Shown here piece by piece: positions 20,772 to 39,695 of a DNA stretch of 42,916 nt. The notes under the pieces were generated by a model. The model was given only the letters and a program-made list of their open reading frames with translations. It made no database searches and was not told the DNA's origin. Source of the stretch: Deltaproteobacteria bacterium (GTDB taxonomy: Bacteria > Desulfobacterota > Binatia > Binatales > Binataceae); NCBI GenBank assembly GCA_021786815.1, contig JAJYMR010000234.1:1-42916 (forward strand). The letters run 5' to 3'. Each line of letters begins with the position of its first letter. Position 1 is the first letter of the stretch. The position numbers and the translations under genes are program-made.

Positions 20772-21635
20772 GTGACGATGGCTTTACCGCATCTCGCGGA
20801 TTATCCATTCTACCGCGAGCGCCTCGGACCGGACGGGCGTCCCGCGCCGTGGGCGCTCGCCGATCTCGAAAGCTACGCCGCCACGCATCCGGGCGATCCC
20901 TTCGCGGGGCGCGTTATCGGCGCGGTGACGCCAAAGGTCGCGCTTCAGATGGAAGCCACCGGCGAGCCGCCGATATGGACCGCGTTGAACCCGCCCGAAC
21001 TCGATCGATGGGCCGAGGTGGTCGGCGGGATGTGGTCACGCTGGGGTGCAGTCGCCAGCGAGACGATCGCCTTCTTCGACTACGGTTCGAGCCCGATGGT
21101 TCTGCTCGCTTCAGGCGGCTACGTGGGCTATCTGCGGCGCGGCGCGGCGGAGCGTCTCGGTATCTTCGCGGTGTGCAATGACGGCGTTGCCACGATGGCG
21201 CCGCGGATGGTCGGTATCGTGGAGACCGTGAAGCCCACGATGCTCGTGCTCAGGCGCGATCTGGTCGCTCCGTTCGTCTCGGCGCTGGAGACCGCCGGTG
21301 TTTCGCTTGCGCAGACGGTTCGATGGGCCGCAGTGAGCGAAGTTGAAGGCACGGTAACTCGGGAACAGGCCCAAGCCGCGGCCTCGAGCCTCGGCGTGCG
21401 CGTGTTGCGAATCCTGCGATGCGACGCCGCCTTTATGCTCGCGGGCGAATGTTCGGAGTGCGGGTGCTTTCATCTGGACCGGCGCTACCGGGCCGAGCAG
21501 TTGCCCTCGGGCGAGGTGGCGATAACCACGACTTTCGCGGTGACCTGTCCTTCGGTGCGCTATAACCTGGGGGCGGCGCGTCTGGCGGGCGCGGGATGCC
21601 CGCTTGAGCCGCGCGCGCAGCGAATCGAATGCTGA
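20772..21635 (+). CDS. PaaK/F390-synthetase-like N-terminal domain protein with degenerate P-loop (probable pseudo-enzyme)
   Basis: ADYPFYRERLG aligns to the PaaK N-terminus, MEATGEPP sits where SSGTTGKP is expected, and ECSECGCFHLD aligns to EC...G.H. The adenylation C-terminal domain is absent. The start is GTG 20772, with ATG 20778 as an alternative. Confidence 0.62.
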   Translation: MTMALPHLADYPFYRERLGPDGRPAPWALADLESYAATHPGDPFAGRVIGAVTPKVALQMEATGEPPIWTALNPPELDRWAEVVGGMWSRWGAVASETIAFFDYGSSPMVLLASGGYVGYLRRGAAERLGIFAVCNDGVATMAPRMVGIVETVKPTMLVLRRDLVAPFVSALETAGVSLAQTVRWAAVSEVEGTVTREQAQAAASSLGVRVLRILRCDAAFMLAGECSECGCFHLDRRYRAEQLPSGEVAITTTFAVTCPSVRYNLGAARLAGAGCPLEPRAQRIEC

Positions 21636-25285: not shown

Positions 25286-25333
25286 AAAAAAAGCGCGCGT
25301 CGCATCCGCTTTGAATCGCGGTGCGACGCGCGC
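25286..25333 (-). terminator. Rho-independent terminator of the thiolase gene
   Basis: Minus-strand RNA forms GCGCGCGUCGCA-CCGC-GAUUCAAA-GCGG-A-UGCGACGCGCGC (12 + 4 bp stem) followed by seven U, 35 nt after the stop at 25369. Confidence 0.85.
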
Positions 25334-25368
25334 CATTGAAACATCAATCGTGCGATTGTGCCTCGGCC

Positions 25369-26613
25369 TCAGACGCCGAACACGTGCACCGACATCGCGG
25401 CTGCTTCGCCACGCACCATTCCGCCGCCGTTCTCGGTAAGACCGATTTTGGCGTTCTTGACCTGGCGCTTGTCGGCCTCGCCGCGCAACTGCCAGAAGAC
25501 CTCGCAGATCTGCGCAACGCCGGTGGCGCCCACCGGATGACCCTTCGCGAGCAGTCCGCCCGAGGGATTGACCGCGACCCGGCCGTTGATCTCGGTCGCG
25601 CCCTCGTCAACCAGCTTGCCGCCCTCGCCGGGCTTGCAGATGCCGAGTTCCTCGTAAGTGATCAATTCCGCGGGAGCCGACGCGTCGTGCAGCTCGATCA
25701 CGTTCACGTCCTGCGGACCAACGCCGGCGATGCTGTAGGCCTTGTTGGCAACGCGCGTCACCACGTCGGGCTCGTCGGGACCGTGGTCGGTACCCGAGGA
25801 CAGAATCGACGCGAGCACTTTGACCGGCTTCGCGGTGAAGCGATTCGCTATCGAGGATGCGCAGAGAATCGTCGCCGCCGCGCCGTCGCCGATCGGCGAG
25901 CACATCAGGCGCGTCAGCGGTTCGGCCACGACCGGGGAATTGAGCACGTCTTCGAGCGTGCAGACATCCTGGTACTGTGCGTAGGGATTGAGGCTGCCGT
26001 TGCGATGATTCTTAACCGCGATACGCGCGAAATGCTCCTTGGTGGTGCCGTACTTCTGCATGTGAGCGCGCGCGGAGGCCGCATAGAAGTCCATGAACAT
26101 CGAGCGCGATTCACCCGCGCCGCCGCTCGGAGCCTCGCCGCGCGCGGCACGCTCGGCGCGCAGTTTCTCCTGGTCGGCGTTCATCTTGGCGACCAGTTCC
26201 CTCATCAACTCGACGTCCACCGCCGAGCCGATCGCCGCAAAGGATTTCTTCTTGTCGGCGTGGTAGAGCTTTTCCATTCCGAGCGCGAGCACCACGTCGT
26301 ACATTCCCGAGGCGACGTACAGCCATGCAAGGTGAAACGCAGTCGCCGAGCTGGCGCACGCGTTCTCGCAGTTGACGATCGGGATGCCGCCGATTCCCAT
26401 CTCACGCAGCACGACCTGTCCGCGGACGCATTCCTGGCCGGTAATCAGTCCCGCCATCGCGTTGCCGACTGCGGCGGCTTCGATCTGCTTGGCCTCTATT
26501 CCCGCGCTCTTCAGAGCGTTGTTGACAGCATCGCGACCGAGAACCTTCATACTCGTGTCAAGATACTTCCCGAATCTGACCATTCCGGCGCCGATTACCG
26601 ACACTTCCCGCAT
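25369..26613 (-). CDS. Thiolase-superfamily protein (SCP2-thiolase / lipid-transfer-protein type)
   Basis: MREVSVIGAGMVRFGK start, nucleophile Cys in VNCENACASSATAF, and NPSGGLLAKGHPVGATG. The C-terminal ENGGGM (not CxGGG) is typical of the SCP2-thiolase-like branch. AAGGAGG SD upstream. Confidence 0.9.
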   Translation of the reverse strand: MREVSVIGAGMVRFGKYLDTSMKVLGRDAVNNALKSAGIEAKQIEAAAVGNAMAGLITGQECVRGQVVLREMGIGGIPIVNCENACASSATAFHLAWLYVASGMYDVVLALGMEKLYHADKKKSFAAIGSAVDVELMRELVAKMNADQEKLRAERAARGEAPSGGAGESRSMFMDFYAASARAHMQKYGTTKEHFARIAVKNHRNGSLNPYAQYQDVCTLEDVLNSPVVAEPLTRLMCSPIGDGAAATILCASSIANRFTAKPVKVLASILSSGTDHGPDEPDVVTRVANKAYSIAGVGPQDVNVIELHDASAPAELITYEELGICKPGEGGKLVDEGATEINGRVAVNPSGGLLAKGHPVGATGVAQICEVFWQLRGEADKRQVKNAKIGLTENGGGMVRGEAAAMSVHVFGV

Positions 26614-26665
26614 GGCGAATGCCTCCTTAAAACCGTTTCCTAGCTGCGTGAGCCTTCAAATGACG

Positions 26666-26989: not shown

Positions 26990-27538
26990 ATGCGAGTAGC
27001 GGAAATCATGAACCGCGAAGTCAAAACCTGCAGCGTCAACGAGATGGCCGGTGCGGCGGCCAAAATAATGTGGGAGAACGATTGCGGATGCGTTCCTGTC
27101 GTCAACCGGGAAGGAAAACTGGCCGGCATCATCACCGACCGCGACATCTGCATGGCGGCTTACACGCAGGGTCTTGCTCTTTCGCTGATCCGGGTGGACA
27201 GCGCGATGGCTCAGCCGGTTATTTCCTGCGCTGCCGAAGACGATGTTGCGACCGCCGAAGAGTTGATGCGCCAGAACCAAGTGCATCGGCTTCCAGTCGT
27301 CAACGCTGATGGAAAACCGGTCGGAATTTTGTCGCTCAGCGACATCATAAGAGAGGCCGAGGCCGAAAAAGCCAAAACGGAGAAGCCCGAAATCGCCGCC
27401 GAGGCTATCGTGGACACGCTCGGCGCGATCTCGGCGCCGCGACCTCATGCCGGTGCAAAGGTCGTCTTTGGGCCTGACGAGGGTGAGATGGAATTTGTTC
27501 CTGGTCCGCCGAAAAAACGCGGACGCTGGCGCCGATAA
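26990..27538 (+). CDS. CBS-domain pair protein
   Basis: MRVAEIMNREVKTC...CVPVVNREGKLAGIITDRDI and HRLPVVNADGKPVGILSLSDI form two CBS motifs. I trimmed the start to ATG 26990, which has GGAGTTGAAGG upstream. The track's N-terminal extension has no coding character. Confidence 0.85.
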   Translation: MRVAEIMNREVKTCSVNEMAGAAAKIMWENDCGCVPVVNREGKLAGIITDRDICMAAYTQGLALSLIRVDSAMAQPVISCAAEDDVATAEELMRQNQVHRLPVVNADGKPVGILSLSDIIREAEAEKAKTEKPEIAAEAIVDTLGAISAPRPHAGAKVVFGPDEGEMEFVPGPPKKRGRWRR

Positions 27539-27587
27539 AGACCCGTCCCACCACCGGGCGGCCGTCGCGGCGTGGATGCACGCGCTG

Positions 27588-28922
27588 TCAGCGCGCTCGT
27601 TCGGGCTGATACGACACGCGCCAGAGCGAATTCGAGGCGTCGTCCGTGATAAGCAGCGAACCGTCTCTCGCTACCGCGACGCCAACCGGACGGCCCCATA
27701 CCTTGCCGTCGGGCGTGATGAATCCGGTGACGAAATCGTAGTATTCGCCGCCCGCGGCACCATCGCGCATCGGGACGCTTATTACCTTGTACCCTGTACG
27801 GCGCGAGCGATTCCATGAACCATGCAGTGTAACGAAGGCGCAGCCGCGGTATTCCTTTGGAAAGGCGCTCGCGCCGTAAAAGGTCACCCCGAGCGGCGCC
27901 GAATGCGACGCGATCAGCACGTCGGGCACTATCGCCTTGCTCATTAATCCCTGATGGCCGCGGGGATGGCGCGGGTCGCGATGCGCACCGAGATAAAACC
28001 AGGGCCATCCGTAGAAGCCGTCTTGGGTCACGTGGGTCACGTAGTCCGGTACGAGGTTATCTCCGAGCCCGTCGCGCTCGTTCACGGCGCACCATAATTG
28101 TCCCGTGGCCGGGTCGATCGCGAGACCTGCGGGATTGCGGATGCCGCTCGCGTAAACCCGCAGTCCCGTGCCGTCCGCGCTGCATGTCAGGATGTCGGCG
28201 CGCAATTTCTCGCTCACGCGAGGATTCTCCTGCACGTTGGAAGCCGAACCGACCGCGATGAACATCCTGCCGCCGTCCGCGGAGAAGACAATGTCGCGCG
28301 TCCAGTGCGCTCCGTAGCCCGGAATTTCCGAAACGACGCGCTCGGCCGGCCCTCGCGCTTTCAGGTCGCCGTTGCGATATGGAAATCGCACGACGGAATC
28401 GGTATTCGCGACGTAAACGTAGCGCGGCTCAGGACCTGGTGGATAAAAGGCAATTCCGAACGGCAGCGTCAGCCCCGAAGCGAACAGCGTGTTCTCGCTC
28501 ACATGCGAGCCGTCTCTGCCGAAGCGCAGCACGCGAATCCGTCCGGCAGTGCTTTCGGCGACAAACACGTCGCCGTCAGGCGCGATCCGGATCTGACGCG
28601 GACTTTGCAACCCGGAGACGAGCAAATCAACCCGAAAGTGCGGCGGCGCCTTCGGCCAGGCGTCGTGCGGCCGGGCGATAATCTCCGCCGGATTGACGGC
28701 CGAAGCAGTCGCATAAGGAGGCGGCAGGTCGCCCAGGGTCACGCGATGGCGCACGCCGGGAGCGTCAGCTTTCCAATCTGAAAATGCACCGTGGACGCCG
28801 TCCGCCGCTGGCGCCGCGTGGGTCACGCAGGGATGCGCGACAAGCGCCAGAGCCGCACCAACCAGAGCCGCGAGCATCGTGCGCGCCAGACGGACGGCAT
28901 GGATACGTTCCCTGGACTTCAT
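27588..28922 (-). CDS. PQQ-dependent sugar (glucose/sorbosone) dehydrogenase-like beta-propeller, secreted
   Basis: Signal peptide (LAALVGAALALVAHP), then GLQSPRQIRIAPDGDVFVAES, GHWTRDIVF, DGLGDNLVPDY, GFYGWPW and PVGVAVARDGSLLITDD, as in soluble aldose/sorbosone dehydrogenases. Confidence 0.83.
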   Translation of the reverse strand: MKSRERIHAVRLARTMLAALVGAALALVAHPCVTHAAPAADGVHGAFSDWKADAPGVRHRVTLGDLPPPYATASAVNPAEIIARPHDAWPKAPPHFRVDLLVSGLQSPRQIRIAPDGDVFVAESTAGRIRVLRFGRDGSHVSENTLFASGLTLPFGIAFYPPGPEPRYVYVANTDSVVRFPYRNGDLKARGPAERVVSEIPGYGAHWTRDIVFSADGGRMFIAVGSASNVQENPRVSEKLRADILTCSADGTGLRVYASGIRNPAGLAIDPATGQLWCAVNERDGLGDNLVPDYVTHVTQDGFYGWPWFYLGAHRDPRHPRGHQGLMSKAIVPDVLIASHSAPLGVTFYGASAFPKEYRGCAFVTLHGSWNRSRRTGYKVISVPMRDGAAGGEYYDFVTGFITPDGKVWGRPVGVAVARDGSLLITDDASNSLWRVSYQPERAR

Positions 28923-30326: not shown

Positions 30327-30398
30327 GTTTGCTCACCTCGGTTATCAGGCGTTTCGATGTTGTATCCTGAGTGGGCGCGTGATGACAGCCGGGAGGGC

Positions 30399-31439
30399 AT
30401 GAGGTTGCGCCAGGCGAGCGTGGTCGAAATCGACGGTTCCTTCGGCGAGGGTGGTGGCCAAATCGTGAGGACCGCTTCCAGTCTTGCCGTGGTCACCGCA
30501 ACGCCGTGCAGGATTTTCAATATTCGCCAGGGCCGCAGGGAGCCGGGCCTTCGCCTGCAGCATCTCCACGGCCTTCGCGCGCTTGCCGAACTATGCGGCG
30601 GCGTTTTCAGCGGCGATGAGGTCGGCTCGCGCGAACTCGCGTTTAGTCCGGGCCACGCGGGCGTGCGCGAGCTCAGAGTCGCGATTCCAACCGCTGGAAG
30701 CATCACGCTCGTGCTGCAGAGCCTGATACCGGCCGCGCTTCGGTTTACGGAACCGGTGACGGTTCGTTTCGAAGGCGGCGGCACGGACACGGCCATGTCG
30801 CCGACGCTCGACTACCTGCGCCATGTCCTGCTCTGGTTTGTGAGCCGGATGGGTATCGCGCCGCAAATCGAGGTTGCTCGCCGCGGATACTATCCCAGGG
30901 GTGGAGCGGAAATACTCGTCAGGATAATCCCGTCGCGGCTGGGCACGATAAACGCGGTCGAGCGCGGGGCGCTGAGACGCGTCTCAATAGTGTCGAGCGC
31001 CGCGGCGGTGCTCAGGGCAAGACGCGTCGCGGAGCGGCAAATCGAAGGAGCGACGGAGGCGCTCGGCGCACTTCCGCTCGCACCCGATAGCGCGATCGAT
31101 TACTCTCCGAGTCGTTCCGCGGGCAGCGCGGTATGCGTTGTGGCCGAGTTCGAAAACACGGTCGTCGGTGCCGACGGACTCGGAGCGCGAGGCAAGCGCG
31201 CCGAAGAAGTTGGCCGCGAGGCCGCACAGGCTTTCCTGCGCGAGTTCGAATCAACAGCGTGCCTCGATCGGCATATGGCCGATCAGATCCTTCCCTACAT
31301 GGCGCTCGCCGACGGCGAGAGTGCCGTCACGGTTTCGGAAATAACCGCCCACTGCCGCACCAACATGTGGGTGATCGAGCGGTTCATGCCGGGACGCTTC
31401 GAGGTCAATGGTAATCTCATCCGATGGCGAGCCGCATAG
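30399..31439 (+). CDS. rtcA: RNA 3'-terminal phosphate cyclase
   Basis: VEIDGSFGEGGGQIVRTASSLAVVT, RREPGLRLQHL, and the HMADQILPYMAL motif containing the catalytic His. I trimmed the start to ATG 30399, which has GGGAGGG immediately upstream. Confidence 0.87.
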   Translation: MRLRQASVVEIDGSFGEGGGQIVRTASSLAVVTATPCRIFNIRQGRREPGLRLQHLHGLRALAELCGGVFSGDEVGSRELAFSPGHAGVRELRVAIPTAGSITLVLQSLIPAALRFTEPVTVRFEGGGTDTAMSPTLDYLRHVLLWFVSRMGIAPQIEVARRGYYPRGGAEILVRIIPSRLGTINAVERGALRRVSIVSSAAAVLRARRVAERQIEGATEALGALPLAPDSAIDYSPSRSAGSAVCVVAEFENTVVGADGLGARGKRAEEVGREAAQAFLREFESTACLDRHMADQILPYMALADGESAVTVSEITAHCRTNMWVIERFMPGRFEVNGNLIRWRAA

Positions 31440-31548
31440 TCGGGGTTGCGCGCGAGAAGTAAGTGCGAGAGTCACGCGCTTCGCGCGCGAGGACGAGTGT
31501 TGCGAGCGCGCGGCGACTCGTGCCGCTCGCGGCGGCCACGTCTTCTTC

Positions 31549-33243
31549 TCAGCGCAAGGCCGTGGCGACCAGTGCGGCCTCGAAGTCCGCGAAATCGGCG
31601 CCGCGATTGCCCTCGCGGGTCCATCGTTCCTTGAGCAGCGCGAGAGCGCGGCGCCTATCAACGAGATGTTCCGGGAGCAGTTTTCGTTCCTTCGCCGCCA
31701 GCATCGCGAGTTCGGACAGCGGAGGGTCGGCCTTTTCCCACGTCGAGCGCATCTCGCGCAGGAAGATCTCCACCGTCACGTCGCCGATACCTTTTCCGAG
31801 CGCTTTCAGCTTTGCTTCAAGGTCGCGCGGATCGCGCGCGGTCTCGTGCAGACGATTCAGATCGCCGCGATATTGCCCGAGCAGGGCCTTGCCGACCTCG
31901 CCGAGTTTCGATGCGGTTTTGAAGTCGTAGCGAACGTATCCGCCCTCGTCCAAAACCGCGACCAGCCCGTCCCATCCGCAAGCAACGACGCGCTTTGCCG
32001 TCGTCAGCCGCTGCTTTTCGAACTCTCGGTAAGTGCGGACCGCGAGAGCTTCCGAGATCCGCGCGCCGAACAGGATCGCGGCGAGGAACCATTTGAAGAG
32101 TTCCTGCGCATCGCGCGAGGCGACATCAATCCCAAGCTCGCGGCTGAAGGTGCCGCCCGTGGTTCTGACGAAATCGGCGAGTCCTCCGCGCTTGCGTTCC
32201 GCAGTCATTTTCTTTTGCCTCCGCAAGTCGCCGACCCGCACACCCAGCAGGCGCACCGGCTTGACGAGTTCGATTCGATTCAGACAGTCGAACGCGGCTC
32301 TCGTGATGAGGTCGAGCGATTTGGTCGGCTCCCGGAGAGTCTCGTCCCGAGTGAGGGTCTGGAAGTCGCTGAAACGCAGCTTTACGGTGACTTTCTTCGC
32401 GAGGCATCCTTCACCGCGCAGATCCTCGGCCGCTCGGCGCGCGAGCCGGACGAGCGCCCCGGCAAGAATCGCGCGGTCGGTGACGTCACGCTGAAAAGTT
32501 GTTTCCCGGCCGCACGATTTCGCCTCCCAGTGCGTGATTAGCGGGCTTTCGTCTATTCCATAAGCGGCCTCGTGCAGGTAGTGCCCGTGCGCGGGACCGA
32601 ACTCGGCGATGATCTCTTCGGGCGCAAGCGCCGCGATGGCCCCGATTGTCTCGACGCCCATCTGCCGAAGCCTTTGCTCGGTGCGCGGCCCGACGCCGGG
32701 GAGTCTTCCAGCGGGAAGCGGCCAGATGCGCGCGGGGATGTCGGATTCGTCGATGATGACGAGCCCGTCGGGTTTGTTCATATCGGAGGCGATTTTTGCA
32801 AGCAGTTTGTTCGGCGCGATGCCGACAGAACATGTGAGCCCGATTTGCGCGCGGATACGGTCCTTGATTTCGCGCCCGAACATCTCCGGCGGTTTGTCCA
32901 CATGAGAAATGTCGAGGAACCATTCGTCGATGCCCGCGTCCTCGATAACGGGCGAGAACTCGCGCAGAACCGCCTTGATCCTCTCCGAGACTTTTTCGTA
33001 CTCGCGATAGTCAACGGCAAGAAACACGGCCTCGGGGCAAAGCCGGCGGGCGGTTCTAAGCGGCATGCCCGAATGAATTCTGAATTTCCTCGCTTCGTAC
33101 GAGGCCGTCGATACAACACCGCGCTCGGTCGGATCGCCGCGCCCGCCGATTACGATCGGCTTGCCGGCGAGTTCCGGATGGCGCTGCGCCTCGATCGACG
33201 CAAAGAAGGCGTCCATGTCCAGATGCAGGATTCGTCGCTTCAC
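31549..33243 (-). CDS. dinB: Y-family DNA polymerase IV (DinB) fused to a C-terminal ~215-aa HhH-GPD-like domain
   Basis: The first ~345 aa carry HLDMDAFFASIE, SVGIAPNKLLAKIASD and little-finger segments. The C-terminal region contains LFKWFLAAILFGARISEALAVRTYREF and the helix-hairpin-helix LKALGKGIGDVTVEIFLREM followed by WEKADPP. The start codon is GTG. Confidence 0.88.
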   Translation of the reverse strand: MKRRILHLDMDAFFASIEAQRHPELAGKPIVIGGRGDPTERGVVSTASYEARKFRIHSGMPLRTARRLCPEAVFLAVDYREYEKVSERIKAVLREFSPVIEDAGIDEWFLDISHVDKPPEMFGREIKDRIRAQIGLTCSVGIAPNKLLAKIASDMNKPDGLVIIDESDIPARIWPLPAGRLPGVGPRTEQRLRQMGVETIGAIAALAPEEIIAEFGPAHGHYLHEAAYGIDESPLITHWEAKSCGRETTFQRDVTDRAILAGALVRLARRAAEDLRGEGCLAKKVTVKLRFSDFQTLTRDETLREPTKSLDLITRAAFDCLNRIELVKPVRLLGVRVGDLRRQKKMTAERKRGGLADFVRTTGGTFSRELGIDVASRDAQELFKWFLAAILFGARISEALAVRTYREFEKQRLTTAKRVVACGWDGLVAVLDEGGYVRYDFKTASKLGEVGKALLGQYRGDLNRLHETARDPRDLEAKLKALGKGIGDVTVEIFLREMRSTWEKADPPLSELAMLAAKERKLLPEHLVDRRRALALLKERWTREGNRGADFADFEAALVATALR

Positions 33244-33251
33244 CCATCTTC

Positions 33252-33427
33252 ATAGCCCGCAAACCCCAGGCCATCGCGGACGGCCGAACGGCCGACACGG
33301 TGCTGCCACCTAGCGCATCAGACGCCGAAACGGTGTGTCCAAACGGTACAACATCTGCCGGCCGAGCGAACTGACAAAGCGCGTGCAAGCACGCCGTGCG
33401 CTGGCACGGAATGTGGATTTCGATAGA
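33252..33427 (+). repeat. Non-coding repeated element, copy B
   Basis: ATAGCCC at 33252. Block 1 at 33301..33326 is TGCTGCCACCTAGCGCATCAGACGCC, matching copy A at 21/26 positions. Block 2 at 33403..33426 is GGCACGGAATGTGGATTTCGATAG, about 22/25 matches with one gap. Confidence 0.6.
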
Positions 33428-33622
33428 TGTCGTTCGTCGAACCCGAGGGTCTCGGCTGCTGCTATCGGCTTTGGCGAAGGACGGAGAGCCCTTGTCCGAC
33501 CGTGTTGCACTGCAAGGCCGGTCAAGGGCAGGTCACCGGATAGGCCCGCTGCCGTTTCGCCGACAAGTGCGCGCATCGAGGCCGCTGTTCGGCGCCGGTG
33601 AAACGGCGCGCGGCAGTTGACT

Positions 33623-34897
33623 ATGAATCCGGGAGCACAAACCAAGTCCGCGACAGGCAGCTTGCCCAGCCTCGTAATCGCGCTTTGCGTCATCTGCATA
33701 TTCCAGTTGCCGGGCCAGGCGCGCGCGCAAATGAATCTCAGCTTCAGCGACGCTATCGCGCGCGCGCTCAGAGCGAACCCGCTAATCGCCGCGGCGGCGT
33801 CGAGGGTCGAAGCGGCGCAAGGTATCCAGGAGCAGGTGGGGCTCCTGCCCAACCCGAGGTTCATCTATCAGTCGGAAAACACGCGTATCGGATGGGGTGG
33901 GCAACCCTTTAACTACTGGAACGACACCGACGACTACTTCTATGTCGAGCAGCCGATCGAAATCGCCGGCAAACGACGAAAGCGTATAGCGTACGGGGCC
34001 GCGGGCGTTGAGGTCTCGCGGATGGCGCTTGCTCTGCTCCGCCGCCATATCGCCGCGCGCGCGAGCCTTGCCTACTGGAACGCGCTGGTCACGGCCAGGA
34101 TTCGCGATCTCCTGCAAGAGGACGAGGGCACCTTCCAGAAGATCGTCCAGTACCATCGCGACCGCGTCAGAGAGGGCGCGATGGCGGAGGCGGATCTGAT
34201 CCGCGTCGAAGTCGCGCGCGACCGGCTCGAGGTGCAGGTGCAGAACGCGCGGATAGAGGCCGACCGGGCGCGAGTTGCGCTTCTGCGCGAACTCGCAATG
34301 GACCCGCGCACCGATATCGCGCTCACCGAACCGCTCGACAGGATCGTCGAGGTCACGCCAATCGATCCCGAGGCCGCGCTTGAAAGGCGCCCCGAGGTGA
34401 TGCTCGCCGAACGGAGCGTGGCCCAGGCTCGGGCCAATCTGACGCTGCAGCAGGCGAATGCATTTCCCGACCCGAGCCTGGTGCTTGGCTACAAGCGATG
34501 GAGCGGATTCGACACGATGCTGTTCGGCCTCCAGGTGGATCTTCCGGTCTTCAATCGCAACCAGGGCCGGGCGATGGCGGCGAGCGCCGACCTGAACGCG
34601 GCGAAATCGAATCTCGCAGCGGTGAGGCTCCAGGTGCGAGCGGAGATTGAGTCCGCAATCGATGACTATGAGACGCGTCGGCGGCTGGTGATGGAAGTGC
34701 CGCACGAAATGCTCAAGCGCGCGCTCGAAACCTCGCGAATCGCAAGGGGCGCGTACGTCGAGGGCGGCGCCGATCTGCTTCGGCTGCTCGACGGAGAGCG
34801 CACGCGTATCGACACCGAGGTTCTGTACAATCGCACTCTCGGCCAATACCGCGAGAGCGTGAGCGCGCTCAGGCTGGCGCTCGGGATGATGCCGTGA
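33623..34897 (+). CDS. czcC: Outer-membrane efflux protein (TolC/CzcC family)
   Basis: Signal peptide, then LSFSDAIARALRANPLIAAA and the two-repeat coiled-coil layout of OMF proteins. It is the first gene of a CBA-type operon. I prefer ATG 33623 over the track's TTG 33617. Confidence 0.83.
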   Translation: MNPGAQTKSATGSLPSLVIALCVICIFQLPGQARAQMNLSFSDAIARALRANPLIAAAASRVEAAQGIQEQVGLLPNPRFIYQSENTRIGWGGQPFNYWNDTDDYFYVEQPIEIAGKRRKRIAYGAAGVEVSRMALALLRRHIAARASLAYWNALVTARIRDLLQEDEGTFQKIVQYHRDRVREGAMAEADLIRVEVARDRLEVQVQNARIEADRARVALLRELAMDPRTDIALTEPLDRIVEVTPIDPEAALERRPEVMLAERSVAQARANLTLQQANAFPDPSLVLGYKRWSGFDTMLFGLQVDLPVFNRNQGRAMAASADLNAAKSNLAAVRLQVRAEIESAIDDYETRRRLVMEVPHEMLKRALETSRIARGAYVEGGADLLRLLDGERTRIDTEVLYNRTLGQYRESVSALRLALGMMP

Positions 34898-36102
34898 GCG
34901 CAAGGGTTCTGACCGTGTCAGTGCTGGTACTCTGGATTGCCGCCTGTGGCCGCGGGCCGGGAGCGCGCAAAGGCACCGCCGGCGGGCCCGCGCGGCCGCC
35001 GGGAATCGTTGTCATGAGCGAGGGCGCGCAGAAGCAGGCGGGCGTAGTTGTGGAACAAGTCGAGCTGCGCCTCATCCCGGAAATGGTCGAGGCTCCGGGG
35101 CAGCTTGTCTTCGACGAGGATCACACCTGGCATATCGGAGCGATCGTCAGCGGTCGCGTGGTCGAGGTGAAGGCGGGCGTCGGCGATCGCGTGCAGGCGG
35201 GGCAGGTGCTGGCGCGACTGTTCAGCGAAGGCGTTCACGAGGCGCGCGCCGCGTATCGAAAGGCGCTTGCGCAACTGGAGCGCGCCCGCTCACAGGCAAC
35301 TTACGCGCGCGAGGTCCGCGATCGTACGCGCCGGCTGCTCGCGCTTAAGGCCGCCTCACGCCAGCAGATGGAGAGCGCGGAAACTTCGCTCACAGCCGCG
35401 GAGGCTTCCCTCAGCGATGCGACGGCCGAGGTGCAAAAGGCCCGCGCGCACCTGACGGAGTTCTTCGGACTCCCGGTCGACCACAATGCCCACGGCGCGG
35501 CGGGTGCGATTCCCGCCGACGATCTGGTTCCCGTGTGCAGCCCGGCCGCGGGCGTGGTCGTGCGCCGGATGGTCACGCCGGGAGCGGTGGTATCGCCGGG
35601 ACAGGAGGTTTTCACGGTTTCGGATCCGAGCACGCTCTGGATGATCGCCAACGTCAACGAGTCCGACCTTTCCGAAGTCCGAATCGGCCAGAAAGTGCAG
35701 ATACGCGTTCGTGCCTATCCCGACAGGGCCTTTGACGGGCGGGTCACGATGCTCGGCGAGGAACTCGATCCGACCACACGCACGCTTCGGGTGCGCGTGC
35801 TGGTCCCGAATCCCGAGGGCGCGCTCAAGGCCGAGATGTACGCGAGCGCCGAAATAGAGCGCCGCTCGACGCATCCCGCCTTGTTCGTTCCGGAGAGCGC
35901 CGAGCAGGAGATCAACGGACAGCCGGTCGTGTTCGTCAGGACCGGGCTCGACCGTTTCCAGCCGCGCCCGATCCGGATCGCGAGCAAGATCAATCGGATG
36001 ATGGAAGTTTCCGAGGGGCTCAAGGCGGGCGACTGGGTCGTAACGCGCGGAACCTTCATCCTGAAGACCGAGCTTTTCAGAAGCTCGCTCGCGGGCGAGT
36101 AG
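34894..36102 (+). CDS. czcB: Heavy-metal RND periplasmic adaptor (CzcB-like MFP)
   Basis: Lipoprotein-like N-terminus (LWIAACG) and lipoyl/beta-barrel motifs (GRVVEVKAGVGDRVQAGQVLARL, VCSPAAGVVVRRMVTPGAVV). It has a GTGA overlap with czcC. Confidence 0.85.
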   Translation: MSARVLTVSVLVLWIAACGRGPGARKGTAGGPARPPGIVVMSEGAQKQAGVVVEQVELRLIPEMVEAPGQLVFDEDHTWHIGAIVSGRVVEVKAGVGDRVQAGQVLARLFSEGVHEARAAYRKALAQLERARSQATYAREVRDRTRRLLALKAASRQQMESAETSLTAAEASLSDATAEVQKARAHLTEFFGLPVDHNAHGAAGAIPADDLVPVCSPAAGVVVRRMVTPGAVVSPGQEVFTVSDPSTLWMIANVNESDLSEVRIGQKVQIRVRAYPDRAFDGRVTMLGEELDPTTRTLRVRVLVPNPEGALKAEMYASAEIERRSTHPALFVPESAEQEINGQPVVFVRTGLDRFQPRPIRIASKINRMMEVSEGLKAGDWVVTRGTFILKTELFRSSLAGE

Positions 36103-36111
36103 GAGAAAGCC

Positions 36112-39100
36112 GTGCCCGCCTGGATCGTCGATTACGCGCTCAACAACCGATGGCTGGTGCTGCTCGCGCTTGCGGGCTTCGTGATCTTCGGTGTGTACAC
36201 GGCGACGAACATACCGATCGACGCGTTTCCCGACCTCACCAACAACCAGGTCGTGGTCGCTACCGAAGCGCCCGCGATGGCGCCGACCGAAGTCGAGCAG
36301 CTTGTCACGTTTCCGATCGAGAGTGCGCTGATGGGCCTTCCGCGGACGCTTCAGATCCGCTCCATCTCCAAGCTCGGCCTTTCGATCGTGACCGTGATCT
36401 TCGAAGACAGCGTCAATACCTATTTCGCGCGCCAGTTGGTCAACGAGCGTTTGCAGGAGGTGCGCGCGCGCCTGCCCGCCGGCATCCAGCCGATGCTCGG
36501 TCCGGTCGCCACCGCGTTCGGCGAGGTTTACCAGTACACGGTCGAGGGGCGGACGTCGCTGATGGACCGCAAGACCCTGCAAGACTGGCAGATCCGTTAC
36601 CAACTGCGCACGGTGCCGGGCGTGAACGAGGTCAATTCGTGGGGCGGCTTCACCAAGCGTTACACGGTCGAGGTCGATCCGATTGCGCTCCAGCGCTACG
36701 GGCTCGTCCTGCGCGACATTTTCGAACGAATCAAGGCAAACAACGAGAACTTCGGCGGCGGCTTCATCGAGCACGAAGGCGAGCAATACAACGTGCTTGG
36801 CGTCGGGCGCGTGCACGACGTGGACGACATCGGGCGTATCGTGCTTCTCGAGCACAACGGCACTCCCGTCCTGCTGCGCGACGTTGCCGCAATAAAAGTC
36901 GGCTGGGTGCCGCGTCAGGGCGCGGTTCTGCGCGGCGGCAAGGGCGAGACCGTCTGCGGCATGGTGATCATGCTCAAGGGCGCCAACGGGCGCCGTGTTA
37001 TCCAGCGCGTCAAGGCGCGGATCGCCGAACTCCATCTGCCCACGGGTGTACGCCTGGTGCCCTTTTACGACCAGTCCGAGGTGATCGACAGCGTGATCCA
37101 CACCGTCACCCGCAACCTTGTCGAAGCCGGGGTGCTGGTTATCGGCGTGCTGCTGCTGTTTCTCGGCAATATCCGCGCCGCACTGATCGTCGCCGCCGTA
37201 ATCCCGCTCTCGATGCTGTTCGGGTTCGTCGGAATGACCATCTTCGGCGTATCGGCAAACCTGATGAGCCTCGGCGCGATCGACTTCGGGATGATCGTCG
37301 ATGGGGCAGTGGTGATGATGGAGAACTCGGTGCGCCGTCTTTCGGAGCACCATCAGGCCACCGTAATCGAGACGGTCCATCATGCGGCGCAGGAGGTCGC
37401 CCGTCCGATTATTTTCGCCGTGGCGATCATAATCGCGGTGTATATTCCGGTGCTTGGGCTGAGCGGGCTCGAGGGTCGGATGTTCCGCCCGATGGCGATA
37501 ACCGTGTGCTCGGCGCTTATCGGCTCGCTAGTCCTTGCGCTTACCGTGGTTCCGGTGCTCGGAACCTTCGCGCTCCGGGCGGGGATGAAGGAGCACGGCG
37601 AGGGATGGTTTCTTCGGCTGCGCAGGCGTTACAGCGACTCGCTCGAGACGGCCTTCCGGCATCGCCGCGCGGTCGTGCTCGCGAGCGTAGCGGCGTTGGT
37701 GGTAGCGCTCGGCTCGCTAGCGTTCATCGGAACCGAGTTCATGCCGAAGCTCGACGAGGGTTCGATTCTCATACAGACGCGAAAGCTCCCTGGAATCTCG
37801 CTCACCGACTCGATCCGCCTGAGCGAGCAGGTCGAGAAAACCGTCTTGCAGTTTCCCGAGGTGCGCGACGTCGTAACAAAGATTGGACGGCCCGACGTTC
37901 CGACCGAAGCGATGGGGGTGTACGAGGCCGACGTGTACGTGATGCTGAAGCCGCGTTCCGAGTGGAAGGTCGCCAGCAAGGAACAGCTTATCGAGCGGAT
38001 GGATGCGCGGCTGTCGAACATTCCGGGCGTGGTTTACAACTTCACGCAACCGATGGCGATGCGGCTTGACGAGGTAGTTTCCGGAATCAAGGCCGATGTC
38101 GCGCTGAAAATCTTCGGCGAGAACTCGCAAACGCTCGAGGCACTGGCCACCAAGGCGCTCGGGCTGATCGCGACCGTGCCGGGCGCGGCCGACACGCAGG
38201 CCGAAGTGATTTCGGGCGTGCCCGAAATCAGGATCAGAATCGATAGAAAGTCGTTGTCACGTTACGGCCTGAACGTGTCCGACGTGCAAAACCTGGTCGA
38301 TGCGGCGACGGGAGGCTATCAGGTTTCGGAACTGGTCGACGGTCCGCGCCGTTTTCCGATCGCGGTTCAACTGCCCGAAAGCTCTCGCGAGAACCTGGGA
38401 GCAATCAGAAACCTCCTCCTGCAGGCGCCCGCCGGCGAGCGGGTCCGGCTTGGCCAGGTCGCGGAAGTCGAATTGCGCCGCGGTCCCGAAGTTATCACGC
38501 GCGAAAACGGCCAGCGCCGTATCGTGGTGCAGGCCAACGTTCGCGGGCGCGACCTCGGGAGTTTCGTGGCCGACGCGCAGCGCCTGATCAATGCGAACCT
38601 CAAGCTCCCGCCTGGCTATTGGGTGGAGTGGGGCGGCCAGTTCGAAAACCAGCAGCGCGCCATGAAGAGGCTCGCGATCGTTCTTCCGATCTCGATAGCG
38701 CTCATCTTCGGGCTGCTGTTCGCGACTTTCCGCTCGCTCAGCCAGACCTTCCTGATCCTGCTCGACGTGCCCTTTGCCCTGGTCGGCGGCGTGGCCGCGC
38801 TATGGCTTCGGGGGCTCAACCTGAACCTGTCCGCGTCGGTCGGGTTTATCGCGCTGTTCGGCGTGGCGGTGCTGAACGGAATCGTGATGGTTAGCTACAT
38901 CAACCGGCTTCGCGACGAGGGGCTGAGTCTTGCCGACGCGGTCCGGGAAGGCGCGGCGACGCGGCTTCGCCCGGTCCTGATGACCGCGCTGGTCGCAAGC
39001 CTGGGATTCATCCCGATGGCGACGTCGCACGCCGCGGGAGCCGAAGTTCAACGGCCGCTCGCAACCGTGGTAATCGGCGGGCTTGTCACGGCCACGGTGC

Positions 39101-39201
39101 TTACGCTTTACCTCTTGCCGCTGCTCTACTCGTACTTCAGCCCCGCGGACGTCGAGGGGGGGCCTCCGTCACGCGGCGCGATTGACCGGAACCCACGATG
39201 A
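36112..39201 (+). CDS. czcA: Heavy-metal efflux RND transporter (CzcA/HME family)
   Basis: 1029 aa. The N-terminus reads NRWLVLLALAGFVIFGVYTATNIPIDAFPDLTNNQVVV. TM4 reads AIDFGMIVDGAVVMMEN, the DFG-DGA-EN signature I associate with divalent-cation HME pumps. Confidence 0.92.
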   Translation: MPAWIVDYALNNRWLVLLALAGFVIFGVYTATNIPIDAFPDLTNNQVVVATEAPAMAPTEVEQLVTFPIESALMGLPRTLQIRSISKLGLSIVTVIFEDSVNTYFARQLVNERLQEVRARLPAGIQPMLGPVATAFGEVYQYTVEGRTSLMDRKTLQDWQIRYQLRTVPGVNEVNSWGGFTKRYTVEVDPIALQRYGLVLRDIFERIKANNENFGGGFIEHEGEQYNVLGVGRVHDVDDIGRIVLLEHNGTPVLLRDVAAIKVGWVPRQGAVLRGGKGETVCGMVIMLKGANGRRVIQRVKARIAELHLPTGVRLVPFYDQSEVIDSVIHTVTRNLVEAGVLVIGVLLLFLGNIRAALIVAAVIPLSMLFGFVGMTIFGVSANLMSLGAIDFGMIVDGAVVMMENSVRRLSEHHQATVIETVHHAAQEVARPIIFAVAIIIAVYIPVLGLSGLEGRMFRPMAITVCSALIGSLVLALTVVPVLGTFALRAGMKEHGEGWFLRLRRRYSDSLETAFRHRRAVVLASVAALVVALGSLAFIGTEFMPKLDEGSILIQTRKLPGISLTDSIRLSEQVEKTVLQFPEVRDVVTKIGRPDVPTEAMGVYEADVYVMLKPRSEWKVASKEQLIERMDARLSNIPGVVYNFTQPMAMRLDEVVSGIKADVALKIFGENSQTLEALATKALGLIATVPGAADTQAEVISGVPEIRIRIDRKSLSRYGLNVSDVQNLVDAATGGYQVSELVDGPRRFPIAVQLPESSRENLGAIRNLLLQAPAGERVRLGQVAEVELRRGPEVITRENGQRRIVVQANVRGRDLGSFVADAQRLINANLKLPPGYWVEWGGQFENQQRAMKRLAIVLPISIALIFGLLFATFRSLSQTFLILLDVPFALVGGVAALWLRGLNLNLSASVGFIALFGVAVLNGIVMVSYINRLRDEGLSLADAVREGAATRLRPVLMTALVASLGFIPMATSHAAGAEVQRPLATVVIGGLVTATVLTLYLLPLLYSYFSPADVEGGPPSRGAIDRNPR

Positions 39202-39695
39202 AGCTCGAAGCGTCGAATTCGCTCGTGCGCGACGCGCTTGGACTATGCGGATGGATCCTGCTGTGCTTTGCGGTCGCGGGAATCGCCTCCCGGTTCACCG
39301 CGATGTCGCTGCGCGACTGGTATCCCGGCCTTCGCAAACCGGCGCTGACTCCGCCCGGTTGGGTATTCGGCCCGGTATGGAGCGCGCTCTATCTCATGAT
39401 GGCCGTCGCGGCGTGGCTCGTATGGCTCAGGCGCGACCGTCCCGAAAGGCGCCGCGCGCTCGCGATCTTCGTTTTCCAGCTGGCGGTCAATGCGGCGTGG
39501 TCGGGACTGTTTTTTGGGCTTAAGAGTCCGCTTGCCGGGTTGCTTGATATCGCGGTGCTGTGGTGTGCGGTGCTGGCTGCGGCGATCGCGTTTGCGAAGA
39601 TAAATCAGGCCGCAGGATGGATGCTCGCGCCGTACCTCGGATGGGTCGCGTTCGCGGGCTACCTGAACGCGGCGATCTGGCTGCTCAACGCGTAG
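39198..39695 (+). CDS. tspO: TspO/MBR tryptophan-rich sensory protein
   Basis: WYPGLRKPALTPPGWVFGPVWSALYLMMAVAAW, AVNAAWSGLFFG and APYLGWVAFAGYLNAAIW. Its ATG overlaps the czcA stop as ATGA. Confidence 0.9.
   Translation: MKLEASNSLVRDALGLCGWILLCFAVAGIASRFTAMSLRDWYPGLRKPALTPPGWVFGPVWSALYLMMAVAAWLVWLRRDRPERRRALAIFVFQLAVNAAWSGLFFGLKSPLAGLLDIAVLWCAVLAAAIAFAKINQAAGWMLAPYLGWVAFAGYLNAAIWLLNA

Follow-up and report, generated by a model that had tools for sequence, protein, structure and literature searches.

Covalent union of a repair polymerase with an end- or lesion-processing module is known from bacterial LigD and from eukaryotic Pol beta, with its deoxyribose-phosphate (dRP) lyase domain, and it is the sliding clamp that normally directs Y-family polymerases to damage. 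Here we describe a gene in which a Y-family polymerase, DinB (DNA polymerase IV, Pol IV), runs on into a domain predicted to adopt the helix-hairpin-helix-GPD (HhH-GPD) fold and to be a distant relative of endonuclease III (EndoIII, Nth). The gene occupies positions 31549..33243 of the minus strand in a 42,916-nt stretch of DNA from a Deltaproteobacteria bacterium of the family Binataceae (GenBank assembly GCA_021786815.1, contig JAJYMR010000234.1); this whole stretch is called the window below, and the added domain the module. Two things we rate as new: the module's branch within the HhH-GPD superfamily, and its union with a Y-family polymerase as a domain architecture.

Three described systems stand close to parts of this locus. 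EndoIII-3 of Deinococcus radiodurans (drEndoIII-3) is reported to be inactive on classical substrates and yet to bind tightly to abasic-site DNA (PMC5128194). The MagIII/MpgII/MJ1434 branch includes Sis-HhH-GPD (SiRe_0278 of Saccharolobus islandicus), described in PMC11754123 as an alkyl-base glycosylase with Ser at the position of the catalytic Asp; mutating this Ser does not abolish activity, and a Glu at the position of the catalytic Lys is essential. A uracil-DNA glycosylase (UDG) gene joined in an operon to a radical S-adenosylmethionine (radical-SAM)/HhH gene (COG1573-COG4277) is presented in PMC8565304 as a putative SOS-regulated base-excision system. In the literature searched we found no Y-family polymerase joined to an HhH-GPD domain, and nothing relevant on uncharacterized HhH-GPD proteins together with RtcA, the gene next to the fusion.

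As assembled, the fusion gene is an open reading frame (ORF) of 564 residues, started by GTG and uninterrupted in frame, and is laid out as follows.

32203..33243, minus strand: DinB / DNA polymerase IV domain, residues 1-347, with palm-fingers, thumb with HhH, and little finger (Pfam, NCBIfam).
32179..32202, minus strand: basic linker, approximately residues 348-355 (low-confidence stretch 345-351 in the full-length AlphaFold2 (AF2) model).
31552..32196, minus strand: predicted HhH-GPD-fold module, residues 350-564 (AF2, structural search, hhalign).

An initial annotation, made from the letters alone, had noted an extension of about 215 residues past Pol IV without a frame break, and this stands, the DinB half ending at about residue 347. 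The fusion is genuine. Two long Logan contigs from different studies (8,543 nt from run X1 and 10,169 nt from run X4) cover 31400-33300 unbroken, with no letter differences across the junction near 32200; each was flagged as a possible source of the window DNA, and at most one of them is non-independent. In agreement with them, the DinB-module architecture is common to five protein clusters (P0002-P0006, from the ncbi, jgi and lgn sources), whose modules are 61-98% identical and whose linker sequences differ. In the full-length AF2 model (mean predicted local distance difference test, pLDDT, 89.3) both halves are confident, yet pLDDT drops below 50 at residues 345-351 and the predicted template modelling score (pTM) is 0.54, leaving the placement of the halves relative to each other undefined. 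The model fits a flexible tether between the DinB half and the module.

Residues 1-347 are, judging by their sequence, a complete and intact DinB. Pfam IMS spans residues 8-154 (E 2.1e-48, model positions 1-148 of 148), IMS_HHH 167-197, IMS_HHH_1 180-231 and IMS_C 242-344 (model positions 2-103 of 109), and the NCBIfam DNA polymerase IV equivalogs PRK03352.1 (NF002883, 344.4 bits against a cut-off of 330) and PRK02406.1 (NF002677, 325 bits against 256) are both passed. The DxD and DE motifs, whose carboxylates are catalytic in Y-family polymerases, are present (LDMDAFF, IDEWF) in columns that are invariant in all seven module-linked DinBs, and an aromatic FF pair sits at the motif DMDAFF, where an aromatic residue serves these polymerases as steric gate.

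Identity of this half is 64-80% with the other module-linked DinBs, against 40-42% with the conventional DinBs compared, including that of its own genome (L081). Just past the little finger, Q-x-x-L-F is found in 8/8 conventional DinBs from this genome and its relatives, the second DinB of the window's genome among them, and a pattern search for a clamp peptide at this place (Q-x-x-L-F or QLxLxL), which degenerate motifs could escape, found none in the seven module-linked DinBs. The fused DinB sits within a big, widespread clade of short DinBs (334-397 residues, 60-67% identity), and the pattern search likewise found no clamp motif in any of the 85 short-clade proteins, out of 115 examined, whose little-finger end was located. 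As the whole clade goes without the motif, the fusion arose where a recognisable clamp peptide was already missing, and the fused DinB is probably not recruited via the replisome clamp but acts independently of it. For the same reason, a role of the module as substitute for a lost clamp-binding tail was considered and rejected. The short DinBs (P0290-P0404) stop 10-30 residues past the little finger, and where named they are labelled Desulfobacterales, Thermodesulfobacteriota or Nitrospirota.

The extension had been likened in the initial annotation to EndoIII-related HhH-GPD proteins, and structure prediction and profile comparison bear this out. The AF2 model of the module, with 45 relatives in the alignment, reached pLDDT 96.7 and pTM 0.92. 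In a structural search against representatives (VIA), E. coli EndoIII (2abk) came top (Z 15.6, 180 residues, root-mean-square deviation 3.5), followed by NTHL1, drEndoIII-3, MagIII, MutY, MIG, QNG1/DUF2419, Mag1, Ogg, AlkA, MBD4, ROS1 and AGOG; ranks 1-24 all belong to the HhH-GPD superfamily (Z 15.6 to 7.5), ranks 25-26 are glycosylase-related, and the first unrelated fold appears at Z 5.5. Foldseek gave drEndoIII-3 as the best match (E 2.2e-4), a family profile run against PDB sequences reached an EndoIII (E 5.1e-6), and hhalign paired the module with a canonical Nth (from locus L026) at 95.3% probability and E 2e-8 over 172 columns. Simpler searches were silent: with the single module sequence nothing significant was found among PDB chains, no Pfam or NCBIfam model, PF00730 included, matched even at E up to 1, and none of 46 sampled family members reached Pfam significance, the best HhH-GPD match being E 0.045, in two members. 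By profile and by model, the module is a member of the HhH-GPD superfamily fold and a distant relative of EndoIII, and we take glycosylases of EndoIII-like type to be its ancestors.

Three elements of the module, numbered within residues 350-564, can be placed against Nth.

31921..31944, minus strand: family signature loop GGYVRYDF, module 85-92 (aligned to the Nth TGFYK-NKA loop).
31750..31809, minus strand: helix-hairpin-helix LKALGKGIGDVTVEIFLREM, module 130-149, with Val140 at 31777..31779 and invariant F145, R147 and E148 (aligned to Nth LPGVGRKTANMVL).
31714..31740, minus strand: remodelled 'GPD' loop WEKADPPLS, module 153-161, with Ser161 at 31714..31716 (hhalign).

The helix-hairpin-helix proposed earlier was thus recovered by alignment to that of a canonical Nth, its h-x-G-h-G hairpin being present as GKGIG, with G136 in 193 and G138 in 189 of the 198 family rows that span the domain. 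These rows, a sample dominated by close relatives, underlie the column counts given here; counts were also made in 61 diverse representatives at no more than 50% identity. The Schiff-base Lys of Nth (GVGRK; K120 in E. coli) pairs in hhalign with Val140 (GIGDV). This position is V in 142 rows, T in 27, I in 9, L in 7, A in 5 and E in 2, and Lys occurs in none of the 198 rows nor in any of the 61 diverse representatives, which leaves an EndoIII-type apurinic/apyrimidinic (AP) lyase step without basis. The catalytic Asp of Nth (AVDTH) pairs with Ser161, which N-caps helix 162-170 in the model; here the rows hold S in 151, D in 16 and G in 9, and Asp occurs in 14 of the 61 representatives. The Asp of WEKADPP (D157), pointed out in the initial annotation, sits four residues before Ser161, at a position that is E in 79 and D in 60 rows, acidic in only 139 of 198. 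It is thus off the canonical position, which is taken by Ser161, and the glycosylase/lyase chemistry suggested for the extension found no support, as the Lys has given way to Val140, the Asp to Ser161 and the iron-sulphur (Fe-S) loop to a basic tail. A catalytic carboxylate that had 'migrated' to 157 or 162 was also considered as a family rule and rejected, since 18 of the 61 representatives have no carboxylate at 157, 161 or 162.

What is constrained instead lies largely elsewhere. The signature loop carries a three-residue insertion relative to the Nth loop TGFYK-NKA, which presumably is the minor-groove wedge of EndoIII-DNA complexes, and its residues are highly conserved (G86 191, Y87 191, R89 188, Y90 189, D91 190 and T94 188 of 198). 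Other near-invariant residues are W36 (196), F145 (197), R147 (194), E148 (190), R150 (183), W153 (194) and E206 (186), and the invariant motifs of the family read GGYxRYD and FLRExRxxW. A C-x-C-x2-C-x-C ending, which aligns with the [4Fe-4S] cysteines of Nth, is found in 48 of 199 family rows, and 116 of the 199 are Cys-free. All seven DinB-linked modules are Cys-free, six with an Arg/Lys-rich tail and the seventh, that of the window ORF, truncated as assembled. In these alignments the Lys, Asp and Fe-S loop of EndoIII are lost, and the DNA-binding hairpin and the loops aligned to EndoIII DNA-contact loops are kept.

The truncation of the window ORF goes back to a single letter.

31566..31567, no strand: one-base deletion in the window (extra G behind plus-strand 31566 in runs X1, X4 and X10).
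31472..31566, minus strand: true 3' end, a 31-residue Arg-rich tail closed by the TGA at 31474..31472 and standing where EndoIII has its Fe-S loop (shifted-frame reading equal to the P0002 tail).

The extra base is present at full depth in X1 (16.8/16.8), X4 (50.9/50.9) and X10 (3.5/3.5), which are all the runs covering 31566 and come from three studies. Once it is restored, the frame extends to the TGA at 31474..31472 and encodes the tail RHGLALRRRRGRRERHESPRARNTRPRARSA, identical to that of P0002. Given the extra base in all three covering runs and the matching tail, the true product has 590 residues, and the ending in the window (...ALVATALR*, its last five residues, ATALR, and stop) is a consensus error or a rare variant. 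The deletion leaves the junction near 32200 unaffected. At the other end, the GTG at 33243 (VKRRILHLDMD), which matches MRRILHLDMD of P0003, appears the likelier start; the representative of cluster P0002 has been called from an internal Met (MDAFF...), which would delete the first catalytic Asp strand.

DinB and the module also occur as neighbouring genes. In two proteobacterial metagenome-assembled genomes (MAGs; loci L066 and L073), a dinB of 354 and 356 residues, respectively, 64% identical to the DinB half of the window, is directly followed by a separate, overlapping module gene in another frame. In a FastTree tree of 212 module rows, a clade of 9 rows (support 91) unites the five fused modules and four unfused rows that come from short contigs, and L066 and L073 lie outside it. 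The DinB tree (124 rows) groups the five fused DinBs and an unfused protein of 336 residues in a clade of 6 rows (99), and L066 and L073 sit together in a separate 8-row clade (95). Clustering of the fused proteins in both trees indicates a stable, inherited architecture, and the topologies fit one fusion event, since diverged, plus a separate lineage of adjacent genes. The architecture is rare: DinB fusions make up 5 of the 22 module-bearing clusters of 310-987 residues, and 5 of the 120 closest DinB clusters are of fusion length. The window's own genome (88% complete) has one conventional DinB and three ordinary HhH-GPD genes, and its single copy of the module is that in the fusion.

The stand-alone relatives that the initial annotation called EndoIII-related exist in large numbers, some of them named 'endonuclease III' by their sources. 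At least 3,199 clusters of 30-309 residues match the module at E 1e-3 or better, most members standing alone; 1,025 representatives at 50% identity match the family, 500 of them at E 1e-10 or better, and at least 568 places were found in contigs representing one genome per species. None of the 120 short clusters listed has a precomputed Pfam domain, although JGI names some 'endonuclease III', and the closest clusters by language model are nameless or called 'endoIII-related endonuclease family protein'. The family is covered by no curated model and has no assigned function. Genome neighbourhoods were taken from the best 80 of the at least 568 places, in MAGs labelled Binataceae, Nitrospirota, Thermodesulfovibrionales, Gamma-/Betaproteobacteria, Ignavibacteria, Aerophobetes, Zixibacteria, Clostridia and Bathyarchaeia. 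Distant copies lie on replicons of Streptomyces, Embleya, Nonomuraea and Kitasatospora, and a plasmid collection gave nine weak matches at 29-36% identity, each on an actinomycete replicon of megabase size; one of these matches is annotated just as 'endonuclease' and has uninformative neighbours. PADLOC found no match for the module, the whole protein or three relatives, and phage records gave no match, so that a defence or phage origin is without support.

The other fusion partners of the module are varied. It is joined to RtcA (RNA 3'-terminal phosphate cyclase) in P0017, to the RNA 2',3'-cyclic phosphodiesterase LigT in P0009 (123.9 bits against a cut-off of 65.7) and P0219, to a PSTK/KTI12-like P-loop kinase in P0016, to a HAD-IIIA phosphatase in P0014, and to TPMT-like and CheR-like methyltransferases in P0015 and L047; further partners are HEAT repeats (P0011), DUF2267 (P0022), an archaemetzincin-like peptidase (P0249) and a doubtful GNAT domain (P0023).

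Gene neighbours show some of the same names. Beside the fusion gene itself lies RtcA:

30357..31439, plus strand: RtcA (RNA 3'-terminal phosphate cyclase; Pfam RTC E 2e-73; TIGR03399 358.9 bits against a cut-off of 250).

It is convergent with the fusion gene, whose corrected stop is 32 nt away. At L005, too, RtcA is convergent with the module, there a stand-alone one, and RtcA lies within 4 kb of the module in L006 and L075. The RtcB of the window's genome is on another contig (C189:966-2273), apart from RtcA.

In six of the 80 loci, TIGR03916 (rSAM_link_UDG, 'putative DNA modification/repair radical SAM protein') stands directly upstream of the module on the same strand, four of the six matches being above the curated cut-off, one at 331.5 against 343.5, and one partial. 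This partner carries an HHH_3 DNA-binding domain, and we take TIGR03916 to be the same family as COG4277. The gene string TIGR03916-module-MnmA is conserved (L041:4778-11089, L042, L048, L050, L074, L038), and in L041 MnmA is followed by a PcrA/UvrD-like helicase that ends in a Cas4-like nuclease. In five of the six genomes, which were searched, the module-linked gene is the sole full TIGR03916 match (G065 has in addition a 17.5-bit fragment), and a UDG-family gene is present in only two of the five, both times on another contig. Judged by gene order, the module fills the slot of the UDG-like partner beside the TIGR03916 radical-SAM gene.

Within 1.5 kb of the module in the 80 loci, protein-L-isoaspartate O-methyltransferase (PCMT) and an HPF-cold-shock fusion were counted in 8 loci each, and radical-SAM genes of two kinds in 8 and 10; archaemetzincin and PGA_cap came to 7 each, CheR and nitroreductase/SagB-like genes to 5 each, DJ-1 to 4 and a PNK-like kinase to one (L034); the query families came from the first 41 loci annotated, and families seen only in the remaining 39 are outside these counts. 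Further neighbours include MnmA and BipA. PCMT stands directly beside the module in L008, L013, L014, L018, L028, L032, L033 and L052, and the PCMT-module loci are mostly from Nitrospirota and Thermodesulfovibrionales, often with an AmmeMemoRadiSam-type radical-SAM gene.

Taken together, we give even odds, a probability of about 0.5, to the reading that the module recognises lesions and targets the flexibly tethered DinB to them, catalysis by the module being possible. On this reading the module would recognise nucleic acid where it is damaged, be it abasic, modified in a base or nicked and processed, and would keep the tethered polymerase at that site to fill a short gap or bypass the lesion, with the DinB half presumably working clamp-independently; the module might only bind, or might also cleave the glycosidic bond with non-canonical residues. 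The reading is favoured because the module is repeatedly fused or adjacent to enzymes that fill gaps or heal ends, and because the EndoIII residues are lost while a new set of polar residues is strongly constrained. Of the coupling between lesion recognition and gap filling that was proposed at the outset, the coupling survives as the best reading of the fusion and adjacency patterns, and the lyase route to it does not.

Several observations weigh against lesion recognition on behalf of DinB. Most family members stand alone, their neighbourhoods are heterogeneous, and their fusion partners also include HEAT repeats, a methyltransferase, DUF2267 and a peptidase, so the family is not tied to DNA polymerases, nor clearly to DNA. 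As enzymes of RNA ends, RtcA and LigT point to RNA over DNA. By their conservation, the near-invariant acids D91 and E148 would suit an active site better than a surface that only binds. The missing clamp motif is, in the proteins compared, a trait of the whole short-DinB clade, and the module is no replacement for it. The fusion was found in none of the 60 related genomes searched, among which two (85% and 94% complete) share the genus of the window's genome, a count that rests partly on one unpublished genome (G019); these relatives have conventional DinB only (38-43% identical), with a stand-alone module in one. Among 80 metagenome DinB loci listed from a scan with the whole protein, whose matches follow a generic DinB pattern, neither the module nor RtcA was near DinB in any; 60 of the 80 have at least 700 nt downstream, and 10 of the 80 are at 55% identity or more.

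The alternative that survives best, though we regard it only as a tentative possibility, makes the module an active DNA glycosylase with a non-canonical site, in which E148 or D91, for example, would be the general base and W36, Y87 and Y90 would stack on the flipped base, so that base excision and gap filling would reside in one polypeptide. The near-invariance of D91, E148, R147, R150, W153 and E206 agrees with this, as do the EndoIII-type Cys motif kept in part of the family, the module's place in the UDG slot beside TIGR03916, and the canonical Asp retained by 14 of the 61 representatives, which suggests that the ancestor was probably an enzyme. Sis-HhH-GPD is reported to be active with Ser at the Asp position (PMC11754123); however, it has Glu at the Lys position, where the module has Val and the family Glu in just two rows. 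The family also has no universal carboxylate at or next to the Asp position, as the 18 representatives without any attest.

Action on RNA or free nucleotides is, in our view, unlikely. The module would then be an RNA-damage sensor, an N-glycosidase in RNA end healing or a QNG1-like nucleotide hydrolase, and its fusion to DinB a side branch. In its favour are the fusions to RtcA and to the RNA 2',3'-cyclic phosphodiesterase, RtcA within 4 kb in the window and three other loci, the queuine-salvage hydrolase DUF2419/QNG1 among the structural matches (Z 13.3 and 12.8), and neighbours related to tRNA, ribosomes or stress (MnmA, HPF-cold-shock, BipA). The FF pair at the steric-gate motif of the fused DinB points instead to a DNA polymerase, the HhH hairpin with an Arg-rich or Fe-S tail is typical of duplex-DNA binders, and the radical-SAM partner has a DNA-binding HHH_3 domain. 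Still, with RtcA and LigT as partners, and with neighbours linked to stress and protein repair, a role directed at RNA, or a broader one in 'damage control', stays in play.

Less probable still is an EndoIII-like bifunctional glycosylase/AP-lyase, with Schiff-base Lys and GPD Asp, feeding the fused polymerase. The HhH-GPD fold with EndoIII as top structural match, and the name 'endonuclease III' given to relatives by some sources, would suit it, but the sequence already largely refutes it: Val140 replaces the Lys, Ser161 the Asp, the Fe-S loop is absent, and no other Lys is invariant (K35 155, K93 146, K135 159 and K155 157 of 198). That an assembly error or a frameshift merged two separate genes into the long ORF has next to no probability, for although the window does hold one indel error, at 31566, and dinB and module are separate genes in L066 and L073, two contigs from different studies cross the junction identically, five clusters from different sources hold one frame across divergent linkers, and the fused proteins cluster together in both trees.

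If lesion recognition by the module is the right reading, a DinB covalently tied to a recognition domain would represent a different, clamp-independent way of steering an error-prone polymerase, and a bacterial case of recognition and synthesis in one chain. A wider generalisation, which we put forward as doubtful, is that the module is a new and widespread HhH-GPD branch with a re-invented active or recognition site (GGYxRYD and FLRExRxxW instead of Lys and Asp), a portable adaptor or enzyme for damage sites that, through fusion or a shared operon, builds compact repair machines with clamp-independent DinB, RtcA, LigT, a PNK-like kinase, a HAD phosphatase or a DNA-repair radical-SAM protein; if so, the fusion would amount to a bacterial counterpart of short-patch excision repair within one polypeptide, for a new lesion class. 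Apart from the fusion, the family is of interest as a large one (1,025 clusters at 50% identity) with a glycosylase fold and conserved non-canonical residues, spread from Binatota and Nitrospirota to Bathyarchaeia and Streptomyces, and its fusion partners yield concrete functional hypotheses.

The surroundings of the gene in the window are otherwise ordinary. Divergent from it, at 33617..39695 on the plus strand, lies a resistance-nodulation-division (RND) efflux operon coding for an outer-membrane factor, an HlyD-type adaptor and an AcrB-type pump, then TspO/MBR. Three ORFs have no Pfam match at E 1e-5, at 25321..26643 (plus strand, 440 residues), 27445..28008 (minus strand, 187 residues) and 20772..21635 (plus strand, 287 residues); the DNA being GC-rich, some of them may not be genes. 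LexA boxes (CTGT-N8-ACAG, at most one mismatch) numbered 4 in the window against 6.6 expected, none near the gene, with a consensus of E. coli type that may not be the host's. Between 31300 and 33700, a sigma-70 promoter scan gave no sites and terminator-like sites were at chance level, and Rfam returned no families over the whole window.

Compared with known systems, the module shares with E. coli EndoIII and bacterial Nth the two-domain all-helical HhH-GPD fold and the same HhH hairpin, and the optional Cys motif of its family aligns with the Nth [4Fe-4S] cysteines. It differs in having Val for the Schiff-base Lys, Ser for the catalytic Asp and a loop three residues longer, and in falling below the Pfam HhH-GPD threshold; the fusion protein, moreover, ends in an Arg-rich tail and not in a cluster loop. 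The best Foldseek match of the module is drEndoIII-3 (PDB 4uob, 8a5g; E 2.2e-4; VIA Z 14.4), and tight abasic-site binding without classical activity in that protein is consistent with a lesion-binding role of the module. Yet identity between the two is only 17-19%, drEndoIII-3 is not fused to a polymerase, and it is reported to retain the catalytic Lys, Asp and Fe-S cluster (PMC5128194).

The Ser that Sis-HhH-GPD has at the catalytic-Asp position, as in the module, indicates that this Asp is dispensable in some HhH-GPD enzymes; the Sis-HhH-GPD/MagIII/MpgII/MJ1434 branch differs in the residue at the Lys position, which in the module family is Val and not Glu (Glu 2/198). Sis-HhH-GPD is reported to have the conserved HhH-GPD signature motif and an Fe-S loop (PMC11754123), whereas the module family matches no curated model. 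With the UDG/TIGR03916 cassette the likeness is one of position, the module directly following TIGR03916 in 6/80 loci, in the slot of a glycosylase-like partner; here, however, the partner is predicted to have the HhH-GPD and not the UDG fold, and the window fusion has no adjoining radical-SAM gene. With LigD and Pol beta, finally, the fusion shares the concept of a processing or recognition module joined to a repair polymerase, carried out with different folds and different families.

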